Shown: piece by piece, positions 1,500-63,687 of the stretch
Layout: every line of letters begins with the position of its first letter
Position numbering within the stretch: position 1 is the first letter of the stretch
Assembly: GCA_951406725.2 (NCBI GenBank)
Contig: OX597825.1
Span: 60,078,001 to 60,142,000, forward strand
Length of the DNA: 64,000 nucleotides
Source of the DNA: Octopus vulgaris
Lineage: Eukaryota
Direction of reading: 5' to 3'
Translations under genes and position numbers: made by a program
The notes under the pieces: generated by a model
Seen by the model: only the letters and a program-made list of their open reading frames with translations
The model's database searches: none
What the model was told of the DNA's origin: nothing

Positions 1500-1690
1500 T
1501 TATACTGATTTCGTCCTTAGCCACTACACACATTTTTTTCTCTCCTTGTTTTTTTCTGTGTCCCTTTCTGTAGAAGAGGGTAGGCTCGAAACGTAAAAGA
1601 CTTTTTCTATTCCTGAGCGTTATTCTAATACATCTGTTTGTATTGTACACCACCTGTCTTCGTCTTTTGTTATTTCCATAAACTGTCCCT
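1500..1690 (+). mobile_element. HHR-bearing Penelope-like/retrozyme 3' fragment (family F1)
   Basis: Homologous to 16735-16872 (+) and 61074-61260 (-). It contains an HHR motif and its 3' end runs directly into (TA)n at 1690. Confidence 0.7.
1564..1599 (+). ncRNA. Minimal type I hammerhead ribozyme motif, CUGUAGA core variant
   Basis: CUUU-CUGUAGA-A-GAG(gguagg)CUC-GAAAC-GUA/AAAG. Stem I is CUUU/AAAG and stem III is the loopless palindrome ACGU. Confidence 0.65.
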
Positions 1691-2228
1691 ATATATATAT
1701 ATATATATATATATATATATATATATATATATATATATATATATATACATATATATACATATATATACATATATACATATATATATAAATTTAAGTCACA
1801 TTATCTGGATTTAAGTAACACGTTAGTACTCATAAAGTATCGTTCTAAAAACATATGGAAGATATAGTAAGATAAAATTGAAAACGATAAGCTTAAATTC
1901 CACATTATTTTGAAGAATTTTCTTCACTTAGCATTAATGCAGACATGTAAGTAATTTATTTATCATTAAATATAATAGTATGAATTATTTACATATTTTT
2001 AAGTTAAGAAACAATTTGTCCTGATATTAGAACTTTGTTATTGCTAAATACAATTTCATCAAACTATGTCTCTGTCGTAGGAATTCATGCTAGATGTGTC
2101 GAAATAATGGTCGTGATTAATAATAAATTCTCGTAAATGTCATTTTCTATCTTTCATTTACTCTCTCTCTCTCTCTCTCTCTCTCTCTATATATATATAT
2201 ATATATATATATATATATATATATATAT

Positions 2229-2430
2229 AATCCAAACATGAACAAAAGAGAAAACACAACAACGCGAGGACCTGGAACATGTACAGCGTTATTGGACGCT
2301 CAGAAAAGGAAAGAAAGAAGGAGGAATTAGCGTTTCGAGCTGAGCTCTTCGTCATAAACATAGAAAAAGGAAAGGTCCAAGGAAGGGAAGACGGAAAAAG
2401 AAAATCACCAACGATACACGCGCGGTTACA
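2229..2430 (-). mobile_element. HHR-bearing element family F2 with a degenerate ribozyme (2325-2359)
   Basis: Reverse complement of 60096-60279. The motif reads GUUU-aUGACGA-A-GAGC(uca)GCUC-GAAAC-GcU, with substitutions in the core. The 3' end abuts (TA)n. Confidence 0.7.
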
Positions 2431-4394
2431 TACTCGGGATTTCTCAAAATTCTTCTCAATGATATCTGGTTCTACTCGTTATACACGATGAAATACCTTG
2501 GATAAATTTGCTGAGGGCTGATTATTGGATATTGTTAACCAAATTCATATGAAATCTAATGCTTTATTGATAAATGCATAGATTTTTAAAGCAATTCGTT
2601 TCTTCTAACTATCTCCCTCTCTTCTCGCTCTCCCTTTCTTCTCGCTCTCGCTCTCCTCCTCTCTCTCTCTATTGTTTGTTGAATCTTCATGACAGTTGAT
2701 GGGCGTTCCGCTTCTTTGTTATGCTATATGCTTCCCTGGCCATTTTTAAACTTCTCAATCCACTCAAATACACTGTAATGAGAATAGTCAATGAATTTCA
2801 GCCACTGATACACCTTCTGGCCTGAGAAATCGGACTACTAATCTCTGTTACTCATTCATACACACTGCAGTAGTTGCTTTGGAACACAAGAAAGAAATCC
2901 GGGGCGATCAATTACAAACTTAGGTTACGTAACCACTTTGTTGTTTAGCCACATTGCCTTCGGCAATGTGGGTAAGCTAAAGAAAGCTTTGCAAAAATGC
3001 GAGTAACTGTTAAGTCACTCCTGTGTGTGCGTGTGTGTCTATGTATGCATGTATATAATGTATATATGTATGTATATAGCCATGTATCTATGTATGTATG
3101 TTTGTGTGTGCGCGCGTACGTGTGTGTTTATTCTAAAGCAGAGAAAGATAGAACGAGCGAAACGATTTGCTTTCTGCATAGTTTTGAGTTTGTTTGCAAC
3201 GAGCAGGTTTCATATAATTCTCTGACAATCATATTTCAAAATCTGTATCATTATAACAATAGATCTATATAACAATTTCTCACGCGTACGCATTGACTAG
3301 AATGTTCCAGAAAAAGTCAGAAATTGTTAAGCAATCATTTACACTGTGCGTTTACTTCGAATCAGTAATTTTCTAAAATATTATCAATAAAATCAACTTA
3401 AACTTTGACTCTCCTGTCTACAGTACAAATCTGATATCATATGCCAAGTGCAGAATACCATTTGTATTTCTTAAGGACCTTTAAGTAACCAACAAAGAAC
3501 TTTCCCTCTCCAGGCATATATTTCAATATCACTATAGATTCTCCTACACTAATATTGTCCAGTTTATTGCATTTTTTCTGCTTCATTGTATCAATTTCTT
3601 GAGGATTAAGTAATCGATCGAGTAGCAATTTACCGGCATTACGAAGGAAATTGTCTTGTCAAAACTGATGGCAGCTGCTTGAATCCGAAAATCCCCTGAG
3701 AAAATTCTCATGTTCACATAATCCAATATATGTATTGAGATAGTTGAGGAATATTTTACCTATCAATGTTATCTATACATTTGTTTATTCATCATATTGT
3801 GTAATGAAGCAGAGTCTATTGTAAAGTTTAATTGGTTTCAAGCATACGATATAATATCTGTTAGTGATCAGCAGTTAATGCCTTCCTTATTTATATAATG
3901 TCTCTTTAAATATTATATACGCAACGCATGAAACTCCACAGATATCTTGATATTCTATGAACTTAATAATGCGTACGATGCAGCCAAAATTATCCTTGCC
4001 GGGAATATACATTAACACATTCATATATATATATATATATATATATATATATATATATATATATATATATATATATATATATATATATATATATATATAT
4101 ATATATATATGTATATATATTGCTAGATAGATATTTACACGCAAGGATAAAGGAACAAGTACATATGAACAAGTATACACATGACTACGAATTTTCAATT
4201 TTTCAAAGATTTGGCGCGCCATGGAAAGAATATAGCCATATCATGAAACGTGCAATACATGCGATTTTAAAGGTGACAATCTTCTTCTTGGTTATTTTAT
4301 AAATATTTAATGTGCTAATACATATGTTTATAAATAAATATATATATATATATATATATATATATATATATATATATATATATATATATATATC

Positions 4395-4812
4395 CTTTAT
4401 TACTTTTACCTCGTTTCAGTCATTTGATAGCGGCCATGCTGCAGCACCGCCTTCAGTCGAACAAATGAACCCCAGGACGTATTCTTTGTAAGCTTAGTAT
4501 TTATTCTATGGTTCTCTTTTGCCGAACCGCTAAAGTACGGGAATGTAAACACACCAGCATCGATTGTCAAGCGATGGTGGCGGGACAAGCACAGGCGCAC
4601 GAACATACACATACACACACACGCACACGCACACGCACACATACATGGTTATGAGACGGGATTCTTTCAGTTTCCATCTACCAAATCTACTCACAAGGAT
4701 TTGGTCGACCTGAGGCTATAGTAGAAGACACATGCCGAAAGTCCCACGCAGTGGAACTGAACTAGGAACCATGTGGTTGGGAAGGAAGTCTCTTACCACA
4801 CAGCCACTCCCA
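4395..4812 (-). mobile_element. SINE family A
   Basis: Colinear with 243-638 and 46051-46464. Confidence 0.88.
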
Positions 4813-5007
4813 CGGCTCCCTCTATATATCGACTTATAGTTATTAGTGTGTTTAAGTGTTGAATAGAACACTGGCACAGTTTGGGTTGAAACGAACGCTG
4901 TACAGAATAAAATTTAATACCAAGTCCATTTTCTCGTTACATAATCAATGTATATCTATATATATAAAATTAAATAAAGTTTTATTATTAGTGTTGTTCT
5001 TGTTCTG

Positions 5008-61382: not shown

Positions 61383-61637
61383 CGAGAAAAAATAGCTAGT
61401 TACAAAATCTCATGAGATATAGTAGTAACGTACACTACACAGTAAAGCGTGTAGCCACATCGAAGTGGCCAATGAATGTTACTACTAGTTTAACCCTAGG
61501 CGGATTCTTCGCCAGCTGGCTTTTGGTGCAATATCTGCACCCTTTTATATATATACACACATATATATATATATACATATATATATATATACATATATAT
61601 ATATATATATACACACACATATATATATATATATATA

Positions 61638-62201
61638 TAAATTGATCAAAATAAAAACATAATGCGAAGGATTCAGCGGTACATATGTTTCGGGCCTTTA
61701 TTAGACAGATTTATAACAATGCATAATGTATGTGTGTGGCCTTCTTCAGCCGCTCACAACAGCTTCCACAAGGACATGTGTTACATCAAAAATTCTTGGT
61801 TGATGCAAATCCTCTCATTCGCGTACGACATAATGCGGCAGCAGCATAGAATTGAAGCGTCCATCTCTTTCTTCTCTCATTCTACATTGAGAGAAGAAAG
61901 AGATGGACGCTGCAATTCTATGCTGCTGCCGCATTATGTCGTACGCGAATGAGAGGATTTGCATCCCCAACCAAGAATTTTTGATGTAACACATGTCCTT
62001 GTGGAAGCTGTTGTGCGCGGCTGAAGAAGGCCACACACATACATTATGCCTTGTTATAAATCTGTCTAATAAAGGCCCGAAACATATGTACCGCTGAATC
62101 CTTCGCATCATGTTTTTATTTTGATCAATTTACTCCACCACCTACACCACCAAACGGTATACACAGGTGCTTATAATTATCAAGTACTCACCCCGAATTT
62201 C
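61638..62201. mobile_element. HHR element family F11 forming a palindrome of about 490 bp (61638-62132) inside (TA)n
   Basis: The arms are about 245 bp with a few differences and centre near 61884. The right arm continues about 70 bp to (TA)n. Confidence 0.88.
62017..62094 (+). ncRNA. Type I hammerhead ribozyme with a loop 2 of about 40 nt (mirror copy at 61675-61754, minus strand)
   Basis: GCGG-CUGAAGA-aGGCC(about 41 nt)GGCCc-GAAAC(auau)GUA/CCGC, with a canonical core. Confidence 0.82.
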
Positions 62202-62346
62202 TATATATATATATATATATATATATATATATATATATATATATATATATATATAAATATATGTATATGTATATATATAAAGAGCAAAATAGCTAGTTAT
62301 ATAATCTGAAGAGAAAGAGTAGAAGCGTTTTTTTTTAAAAAAGGAA

Positions 62347-62666
62347 CACTCCGTCGGTTACGACGACGAGGGTTCCAGCTGATGCGATCAACGGAACAGC
62401 TTCCTCGTGAAATTAAAGTACAAGTGAGTGAGTAATCCGCAGACACGTGTACACCAAACGTAGTTCTCAGGGAGATTCAGCGTGACACAAAGTGTGACAA
62501 GGCCGGCCCTTTGAAATACAGGTACAACTCATTTTTGCCAGCTGAGTGGACTGGAGCAACGTGAAAATAAAGTGTCTTGCTCAAGGACACAACGCGTCGC
62601 CGGGAATTGAACTCACGATCTTACAATCGTGAGCCGAATACCCTAACCACTAAGTCACGCGCCTCC
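62347..62666 (-). mobile_element. tRNA-derived CORE-like SINE with a family C tail
   Basis: The head and GTTGTGTCCTTGAGCAAGACACTT resemble the 27638 copy. The 3' half resembles 8408-8580. Confidence 0.88.
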
Positions 62667-63687
62667 ACGTTAAGCGAGTAACCACATTGAAGTGGCCGAT
62701 GAATGTTACTTCTAGTTTAACCACAGGTAGATTCTTCGCCAGCTGGTTTTCGTTGCAAGCTCTGCATTCATTATGTACAATAGATCGCTAGCAGCTGACA
62801 AGATTACGGGACCGGCCGGGCTTCATCGATTTGGCCCATGTCGAAACCGGCCGGTACCGCGATCTTACAAACTAAGAAAAATAAAACCTAAAACCTAAAA
62901 ATTATTGACTTAAAATAGTTAGCTTCTAAGATATTTATGTTGATTGAGATGTTGAGGAAAACTAAGAAAGCGTGTACACACACACACACTGACACACAGA
63001 CACACACATATAAACAGTGTATAGCCACCTCAAAGTATCAGACTAATGTTACTACCAGTTTAACCCCAGGCGGATTCTCCGCCAGCTGCTTTTCGGTGCA
63101 AGCTCTGCACCCTTTATATAAAATGAATCGCTAGCTGGGGAGCAAAACCCTACTATCCCGCAGCAGCTGACAGGATCGCGGGACCGGCCGGTTGCGAGCT
63201 ATTTGACTCACGTAAGCCGGGCGCACCTGCGCAGTGGAGTGATAGCCAAGATCCGCTTCCGCCAGCGATATATTGTAATGAAAGTAATCAGCCACTGATC
63301 TGGAATAAGTAAAATAGCCAGTTACAAAATCTCAACGAGAGATAGATAAGTAACGTATACTAAATAGTAAAGCGAGTAGCCACATCGAAGTGGCCGATGA
63401 ATGTTACTACTAGTTTAACCCCAGGCGGATTCTCCACCAGCTGGCTTTCGGGGCAAATTCTTCACCCATTATACACAATACATCGTTAGCATCTGACAAG
63501 ATCACGGGACAGGCCGGTTTCGATCTATTTAGCTCACGCCGAAACCGGCCGGTCCCGCGATCCTGTCAGCTGCTGGGGATTAGTAGGTGTTCGTTCTCCT
63601 TGCTAGCGATGTATTTTATATAAAGGGTAAAGAGCTTGCACCGAAAACCAGCTGGCGGAGTATCCACCTGGGGTTAAACGAGTAGTG

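Follow-up and report, generated by a model that had tools for sequence, protein, structure and literature searches.

Hammerhead motifs in a 64-kb stretch of the Octopus vulgaris genome as probable ends of Penelope-like elements, with a core variant and a tRNA-like head

Penelope-like elements (PLEs) carry minimal hammerhead ribozymes in their pseudo-long terminal repeats (pLTRs), and work of Cervera and de la Pena (2014, PMC4209133) found such motifs, highly diverse, by the thousands per animal genome, mostly single and sometimes as opposite-strand pairs. Craig et al. (2021, PMC8557442) described a Hydra clade of PLEs that includes Hydra-1_Obim, and their supplement contains an octopus Hydra family with a hammerhead and a preference for (TA)n. 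An Anolis Poseidon element was studied by Frangieh et al. (2024, PMC11167929), while non-LTR retrozymes, which consist of non-coding tandem hammerhead units, are taken as PLE derivatives (PMC7229834; Li et al. 2026, 10.64898/2026.07.22.740005). A curated octopus annotation assigns 6.8% of the genome to PLEs, in 190 families (PMC13282606); the word 'hammerhead' is absent from its supplement. How does a piece of octopus DNA crowded with hammerheads fit this picture? The piece is a stretch of 64,000 nucleotides (nt) of Octopus vulgaris (assembly GCA_951406725.2, contig OX597825.1, positions 60,078,001 to 60,142,000), called here the window, for which a sequence-only reading had proposed about twelve unrelated, non-autonomous and possibly new hammerhead families anchored on (TA)n. 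The best explanation, which we consider highly probable as a whole, is that the motifs are the hammerhead-bearing pLTR ends of about twelve Penelope-type families, four of them linked to reverse transcriptase (RT) or endonuclease genes, likely inserted into nicked AT-rich DNA by the element's RT. What is said below of PMC4209133, PMC8557442 (its supplement apart), PMC7229834, Li et al. (2026), PMC6765202, PMC10886601, PMC3088659 and the main part of PMC13282606 holds for the portions of these works covered.

A strict type I descriptor (stem I of at least 4 bp, CUGANGA, GAAA, pair 15.2-16.2, UH) detects 11 perfect-core motifs in the window, compared with 0.025 +/- 0.16 in 40 block-wise dinucleotide shuffles. 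With one core mismatch allowed the window gives 16 against 1.7 in the shuffles, and with two it gives 30 against 14.7, which is mostly noise at this setting. Could all the motifs be chance matches, given that the DNA is AT-rich (34% G+C), hairpin-rich and full of microsatellites? At two mismatches the shuffles do yield half of the window count, but the perfect-core figures, the roughly 70,000 matches in the genome against 8,500 in its control, the finding that every family searched is a multi-copy repeat, the stem I pairing and the 600-kb outside sample described below all speak against chance, whose probability is practically negligible. The shuffled comparison named in advance by the sequence-only reading has thus come out in its favour. 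Rfam shows no hammerhead among the best 150 of its 272 matches to the window, the rows being microsatellite-driven and of microRNA type, and genome-wide it gave 6 hammerhead matches from 73 scored candidates.

All 19 sites that had been listed as type I hammerheads belong to repeat families. Ten are intact, namely 9026 (-), 9128 (+), 9744 (+), five between 30217 and 32230, 61675 (-) and 62017 (+). The other nine are variant or decayed, and their relatives keep the motif: 1564, 24896 and 61151 have one core mismatch, 7778 has two, 60143 has an intact core with pair 15.2-16.2 broken, and 2325, 16782, 23914 and 63179 are recognisable solely by homology to families that retain the motif in other copies. 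An eleventh perfect motif (59254, -) lies outside the earlier list and, among the sampled loci, matches only the window's own copy. The three isolated 3' halves are real as well; the one at 45.5 kb is a fold-back of family D, and those at 18.2 and 29.8 kb belong to families with whole motifs at other loci. Sites and halves sort into 12 families, labelled A to J, K18 and K29, whose queries have zero BLAST similarity to one another, in agreement with the predicted dozen. That the stems differ between families and still pair is also borne out: in a search of the 600 kb outside the window made without a stem I requirement, stem I is paired over at least 3 bp in 14 of 30 distinct core matches, against 3.7 (maximum 9) with swapped partners. 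A palindromic stem III, which is a dimer-type design, is present in each of the 7 distinct core matches of the window and in 24 of the 30 outside.

How heavy is this load? The assembly comprises 2.8 Gb in 227 contigs, and density was sampled in 60 stretches of 10 kb at chosen round coordinates on 29 large contigs (600 kb). This sample holds 16 strict motifs in 7 of the 60 stretches (about 8 insertions, with 7 motifs in one array), and 0-1 motifs were obtained in 10 shuffles; the identical scan gives the 11 of the 64-kb window. The window, which was picked for its richness, is therefore about six times as dense as the average of the genome (11 motifs in its 64 kb, 16 in the 600 kb). A whole-genome pattern count gave 34,911 forward matches versus 4,477 and 4,071 in controls; the reverse count (41,075) includes certain motifs twice, as in 13 of its first 100 rows, so twice the forward count was used. 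Canonical cores above control thus number about 61,000, one per approximately 45 kb, a figure that omits long-stem-II families (C and I) and variant cores (A and F). The proposed one motif per 3 kb holds locally and counts halves, decayed copies and a five-copy array; across the genome it becomes one per about 37-45 kb, so that unusual density is a property of the window and was overstated for the genome. Minimal motifs number 2,000-9,000 per genome in schistosome, coelacanth and frog (PMC4209133), compared with about 61,000 canonical plus at least 14,000 position-6 variant cores in 2.8 Gb here. Published totals, in the portions of the literature covered, include more than 6,000 in 16 families (coral) and up to 120,000 (axolotl), and the load here is high but within the known order. 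Among the first 100 matches of the genome count (contig C1, 0-3 Mb), many further hammerhead families appear beyond the twelve of the window, G being the commonest.

Which of the families are PLEs? The motifs are of the Penelope-like kind, as had been suggested, and no PLE protein or open reading frame (ORF) was matched within the window, which was also foreseen; extension in the 5' direction at other loci, as that reading had recommended, links 4 of the 12 families (D, I, A and G) to coding sequence. Family D is present as a fold-back between (TA)n at 8922..9198, with a full arm at 8922-9097 (-) and a tail-less arm at 9097-9198 (+), both with intact hammerheads (9026-9063 and 9128-9165); a sub-family forms a second fold-back of two 3' halves between (TA)n at 45400..45573. 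Genome-wide D has 1,023 candidates, and 40 scored copies are nearly all 99-100% identical. Its long copies contain a 3' untranslated region (UTR) of about 1.2 kb, then the endonuclease and, further upstream, the full RT-endonuclease frame; the endonuclease is an open frame about 1.1 kb upstream in 6 of 20 loci, and the whole ORF reaches 663 codons in one locus (L149). Family I (1,654 candidates, 99% identical) folds back at 61638..62201, with a tail-less arm at 61638-61891 (-), a full arm at 61876-62201 (+) and two intact hammerheads (61675-61754 and 62017-62094), and in two loci (L157 and L161) continues, across about 2 kb, into an RT-endonuclease ORF. Both proteins have a C-terminal GIY-YIG without CCHH, a DKT motif, and CxxC and CxH flanking the catalytic E and N; the linker CxCX5C is exact in I, and its second C is F in all D copies seen. 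By eye, their RT segments match Hydra-1_Obim and coral Hydra elements, and a homologue search with D returned 3,188 relatives, the best at 58% identity.

By these motifs (the linker apart), the (TA)n target and the hammerhead near the 3' end, all of which they share with the Hydra clade including Hydra-1_Obim, the predicted proteins place D and I among Hydra-clade PLEs as defined in PMC8557442. Stems I and III of D match a Hydra element printed in the supplement of that work, from which the ribozyme strings of D and I and the linker string of I are absent. The two families differ from the usual Hydra element of less than 3 kb: they are longer because their 3' UTRs measure 1.2-2 kb, their tails are about 70 nt, and D has the F for the second linker C. 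A motif elsewhere on C1 (G000:C1:1328887-1328929) closely resembles the published Hydra-1_Obim hammerhead, and that family probably has relatives here. RT and endonuclease fragments of other PLE lineages lie near L160, L268 and L212, the first of several hundred open codons.

Family A occurs three times in the window: a 3' end at 1538..1689 (+) with a hammerhead at 1564-1599 and a (TA)n end, a decayed copy at 16743..16873 (+), and a copy at 61072..61380 (-) with a hammerhead at 61151-61186. Its 3,967 candidates are 84-92% identical. Upstream, a CX4CxxC linker and a GIY-YIG stretch are found in L048, L067/L271 and L272, copies that are old and broken, and the coding link covers the endonuclease and the C-terminal part of RT only. 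The CX2-5CxxC linker before a CCHH-type GIY-YIG suggests a Neptune-like element, with Nematis as the alternative that remains. What sets A apart is U at core position 6, seen in both hammerheads given above. When core positions 6 and 7 are free to vary, a 31-nt pattern is matched exactly 14,734 times in the genome and 0 times in the control; by-eye counts in the first 100 give U 96 and A 2 at position 6, and U 47, A 24, C 18 and G 11 at position 7. Since U6 is kept while position 7 drifts, several source lineages must have retained it. A reading of this core as a 3-nt insertion was rejected, because a 4-bp stem II with a bulged A explains it as a position-6 change. An A6C change lowers hammerhead activity, and the string 'A6U' does not occur in the part of PMC3088659 covered. 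Neither the U6 core nor a tRNA-like head such as that of family G below was found in the portion of PMC4209133 covered. Both this core and the tRNA-headed terminal repeat of G were likewise missing from the literature searched, which is weak evidence of absence. The sequence-only reading had mentioned neither.

The same insertion anatomy recurs across the families. Each has two preferred 3' ends, counted from the cleavage site: +40/+108 in D, +40/+110 in I, +105/+190 in E, +195/+292 in H, +75/+105 in B and +75/+95 in A. Against a background of 4.5%, (TA)n follows the 3' end in 24 of 26 cases in D, 36 of 37 in I, 39 of 48 in E, 24 of 28 in B and 13 of 29 in A; in H it follows 25 of 66, a count that includes internal array joints, and the end and (TA)n counts for C were dropped as invalid, the query having included flank. 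Anchoring on (TA)n, right for most families, describes most ends of D, I, E and B and fails for many ends of A and for G, where it is rare. Both orientations are present at one locus in 19 of 25 cases for E, 12 of 25 for I, 11 of 17 for H, 6 of 20 for D and 17 of 30 for G. 5' truncation, an inverted arm and an optional tail are PLE hallmarks (PMC8557442, section 6), and in the Poseidon element two internal RT start sites were identified as the source of the optional tail (PMC11167929). The published PLE hammerheads (PMC4209133) agree further in being of type I with a stem I of 4-5 bp, a bulged base before stem II and a palindromic stem III, and in occurring as many families per genome, as single truncated PLE copies, as opposite-strand pairs and with a U3-A8 variant.

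From PMC8557442 and PMC11167929 we infer an insertion chemistry for these observed structures. The GIY-YIG domain would nick (TA)n or other AT-rich DNA; RT would then prime at either of two internal sites that lie 3' of the ribozyme, giving tailed and tail-less ends, and copy towards the 5' end of the RNA, dropping off or switching template to leave a truncation and an inverted arm. The ribozyme lies 95-295 nt from the 3' end, so even the shortest insertions keep it and hammerheads outnumber ORFs. Several findings weigh against a PLE origin for the whole set. Inverted arms are rare in B (1 of 25) and A (2 of 25), and tails span 20-97 nt over all families, those of D, I, E and H measuring 68-97 nt against 30-40 nt in print. 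Clade labels come from motifs and by-eye comparison, and Pfam gave no family for the D, I or A proteins. No coding partner was seen for B, C, E, F, H or J in 12-25 loci of about 3 kb each, nor in extra 9-kb extensions of 6 H, 6 C, 1 B, 1 E and 1 J loci, where no ORF was linked; none was seen for K18 and K29 in the sampled loci, no genome-wide search having been made. For these eight families it is the insertion anatomy that would make them PLEs.

Are they retrozymes instead? The view of the sequence-only reading was that all twelve families are non-autonomous, and in its full form this would have them spreading through circular RNA monomers. Family H comes closest. It forms an array at 29932..32418 with (TA)n at both sides, made of 556-nt non-coding units (two on the minus strand, then three on the plus strand past an inversion near 31010) with five intact hammerheads. 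Elsewhere (1,670 candidates; 88 exact 43-mers) it forms tandem and inverted arrays of up to about 7 copies, one whole hammerhead per unit, and no PLE ORF was found in 20 loci and 6 extensions save the decayed remnant of an endonuclease, on the opposite strand, next to a single array. Most of the unit is covered by contigs of three runs presumed to be RNA, in which neither ends nor transcription can be seen. In the window at 31215-31260, and at the same place in each H unit, stands a near-perfect hairpin of about 40 nt with a second CUGAAGA string and no second hammerhead. Families F and J are old tandem units of about 340-360 nt. F is a decayed unit of about 340 nt at 23781..24223 (-), whose relatives carry a U3-A8 core variant and a palindromic stem III; J comprises tandem and inverted units of about 361 nt at 62669..63686, with a further piece at 61389-61545 and a decayed motif near 63179 (-). 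H clearly, and F and J probably, fit the non-LTR retrozymes of PMC7229834 and Li et al. (2026), with which they share non-coding tandem hammerhead units. H differs in its 556-nt unit, its 4-bp stem I and its extended stem II, where the canonical form has a 6-bp helix I and a 4-bp helix II, and in its short inverted arrays set in (TA)n like Hydra insertions; minimal hammerhead models are also admitted for retrozymes (Li et al. 2026). A canonical array does exist in the outside sample (L167:3082-4512, at G000:C1:20.00 Mb), with 359-nt units, five plus and two minus, and a hammerhead with 6-bp stem I and 4-bp stem II; it is the best candidate seen for an expressed circular retrozyme.

Families B and E might seem to point the same way, as their 5' ends are nearly fixed (by eye, 22 of 24 B copies start within about 15 nt). 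B (1,786 candidates) lies at 2230..2422 (-), with a decayed hammerhead near 2325-2360, and at 60099..60280 (+), with a hammerhead from 60143 and a short inverted end piece beyond (TA)n at 60312; E (1,167 candidates) is a short copy at 9709..9965 (+) with an intact hammerhead at 9744-9786. The fixed starts of B (L073-L096) and E (L123-L146) fall at short motifs that we take to be initiator-like, and by analogy with G these copies may be solo 5' pLTRs made by internal initiation. Overall, spread of all twelve families as circular RNA monomers is very unlikely. It is refuted for D, I, A and G, which continue into PLE coding sequence, and most copies are single or inverted, not direct tandems, and so cannot yield a monomer with two cleaved ends. 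Non-autonomy therefore fails for these four, which are ends of coding PLEs with truncated insertions in the window, and only H clearly fits a retrozyme. On the PLE explanation, H would be a non-coding derivative that is mobilized in trans, and the same would probably hold for F and J.

The remaining window copies are quickly told. Family C (2,055 candidates) lies at 7742..8284 (-), its hammerhead at 7777-7864 having a decayed core that is intact in most relatives. K18 is a fold-back pair of 3' halves between (TA)n at 18122..18300 (both strands), and K29 is a 3' half at 29781..29880 (-), with an extra half, new compared with the earlier list, at 2090..2159 (+). A stretch upstream of one B copy (L075) was considered as the parent of that family and rejected, as it proved to be another repeat. 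This other repeat (L419-L423; 2,378 candidates) is set in (TA)n with fold-backs and appears by eye to carry a hammerhead with a long stem II, on the strand opposite to B in L075. Broken ORFs at 6076-6603, 14195-14903 and 32563-33686 presumably represent, respectively, pieces of a long interspersed element (LINE) RT, of a mariner-type sequence and of a Tc1-type transposase.

Family G offers the second variant. The window has no more of it than a 100-nt fragment, cut off within the body and without the head (24852..24950, +; hammerhead 24896-24939 with one core mismatch), of a repeat with 3,025 candidates and 1,152 exact 40-mers genome-wide. Upstream of the ribozyme, relatives carry a head of about 80 nt with A and B boxes, followed by (AAT)n; five heads align end to end with tRNA-Arg and tRNA-Thr of this genome (best z 7.1-9.0, 30 tRNA loci). 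A different tRNA-like head of short interspersed element (SINE) type, best matching tRNA-Lys, lies in the window at 8613-8836, and in L318 that head directly precedes the (AAT)n spacer and body of G. One G copy is joined to an RT fragment, which was then used as a search query. Of 29 loci found by this RT DNA, 23 have, behind the endonuclease, a G unit in the sense orientation, which includes the head in 21 of them. The RT matches Pfam RVT_1 (E 2.4e-10), and the protein has a DKG motif and a CCHH endonuclease without a linker finger (L388, L392 and L400). The G tail runs on into the ORF in 23 exact genome matches; L415 has its start codon (ATG) within the ribozyme core, and from there the frame is open apart from two stops that lie in a 9-nt repeat. 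Taken together, the RT-linked loci and the tail-to-ORF joints indicate that head and ribozyme form the terminal repeat of an autonomous element, so that G is predicted to be the 3' end and pLTR of a Penelope/Poseidon-type PLE present elsewhere in the genome. G agrees with the Anolis Poseidon of PMC11167929 in the ATG of its ORF, which falls within the hammerhead core, in two 3' ends that are separated by 27 nt, in targets that are AT-rich without being microsatellites, and in the DKG motif and a CCHH endonuclease that has no linker finger. G differs in having the tRNA-derived head and (AAT)n just upstream of the ribozyme, and in that most head-bearing copies begin at the head. Pol III-type (RNA polymerase III) heads on mobile units are known from Cassandra, Helenus and Ajax (PMC10886601), and Schistosoma Sm-alpha combines such a promoter with a hammerhead (PMC6765202); these are non-autonomous or LTR-type, while in G the head sits in the terminal repeat of an autonomous PLE.

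What is the head doing there? Among the first 30 exact G copies on C1, 17 have the head, 17 have an inverted arm, 15 end with the tail, 11 without it and 4 elsewhere. These ends are the two PLE ends with the flank directly after, in place of the poly-A or simple-repeat tail of LINE type. Of 18 copies that reach the 5' edge of the head, 13 stop there (P 5e-9 under the truncation rate seen downstream), and of 1,395 exact head 25-mers in the genome no more than 108 still have the 8-mer upstream, against about 45% expected if all continued (an estimate from approximately 91% copy identity). The simplest reading of this 5' pile-up would be a transcript starting at the head, with the short copies as its complementary DNAs. 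Alternatively, the head could be a passenger, an old SINE piece in the 3' UTR at which short copies begin as RT stalls or folds back. It opens with a short GC palindrome able to seed a fold-back, many inversions are centred there, and Rfam does not call it a tRNA; on the other side, the stops fall at the 5' edge, after RT has crossed the whole structure, few copies keep the upstream 8-mer, both boxes (A and B) are intact and four consecutive T are absent from the reference unit. On this question, a passenger head is quite possible, if short of even. At a similar, tentative level we place a joint proposal, drawn from sequence patterns: G would have captured a tRNA gene as an internal Pol III promoter, opening a Penelope-driven SINE route, and A would keep its CUGUNGA core under selection. 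The 5' end of G would then itself be a SINE (tRNA head, hammerhead and RT start sites), copied by its own RT, and the U6 hammerhead of A, kept in over 14,000 copies, would cleave only as a dimer or with a PLE protein. Ohshima and Okada (1994) reportedly described octopus tRNA SINEs, likewise mobile units with a Pol III-type head, and one of them may correspond to G.

Do the hammerheads matter to their elements? The ribozymes would cleave only as dimers or with the help of a PLE protein, and single scattered copies are probably inert. A PLE origin is compatible with hammerheads that are passengers, without a role in cleavage in vivo or in transposition, the fold being kept, for example, for protein binding. 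In the anole PLE, mutating the ribozyme left in vitro insertion unchanged, cleavage depended on protein, and the site was not the end of any RNA-seq read (PMC11167929); the cleavage of minimal PLE hammerheads is weak (PMC4209133). In D and H, stem II seems to begin with an A-A mismatch, and A reached at least 14,734 motif copies with U6, a position where A-to-C gave low activity (PMC3088659). Yet cores are kept across families with unrelated stem sequences, stem I covaries, stem III is palindromic in most sampled matches, F keeps a compensated U3-A8 pair, and variation in A falls on position 7, which is free in working hammerheads. On the question of function, then, the passenger option is possible, though less likely than not.

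What is new, and what does it mean? The kind is known: minimal PLE hammerheads in thousands per animal genome and an octopus Hydra family were already in print, so that novelty of the kind falls away. The window is a dense local sample of mostly ordinary PLE debris plus two variants. Its families are new members at best, and repeat libraries (Repbase, Dfam and the Zenodo library of PMC13282606) may hold them. The measured load of this one 2.8-Gb genome is about 6 x 10^4 hammerheads with intact core, to which variants are added; the Rfam search returned 6 for it. Lunse et al. (2017) reportedly described about 150,000 PLE-associated hammerhead variants cleaving as dimers, which may cover these motifs. 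D and I are very young (99-100% identical, with open RT-endonuclease frames) and can be used for the question of the PLE hammerhead role, and family A can serve as a natural test of the importance of core position 6 when a protein or a dimer lends support. If the head of G is truly a promoter, it would represent a Penelope RT route to SINE-like elements, and octopus annotations might owe to this route part of their large 'unclassified SINE' fraction.

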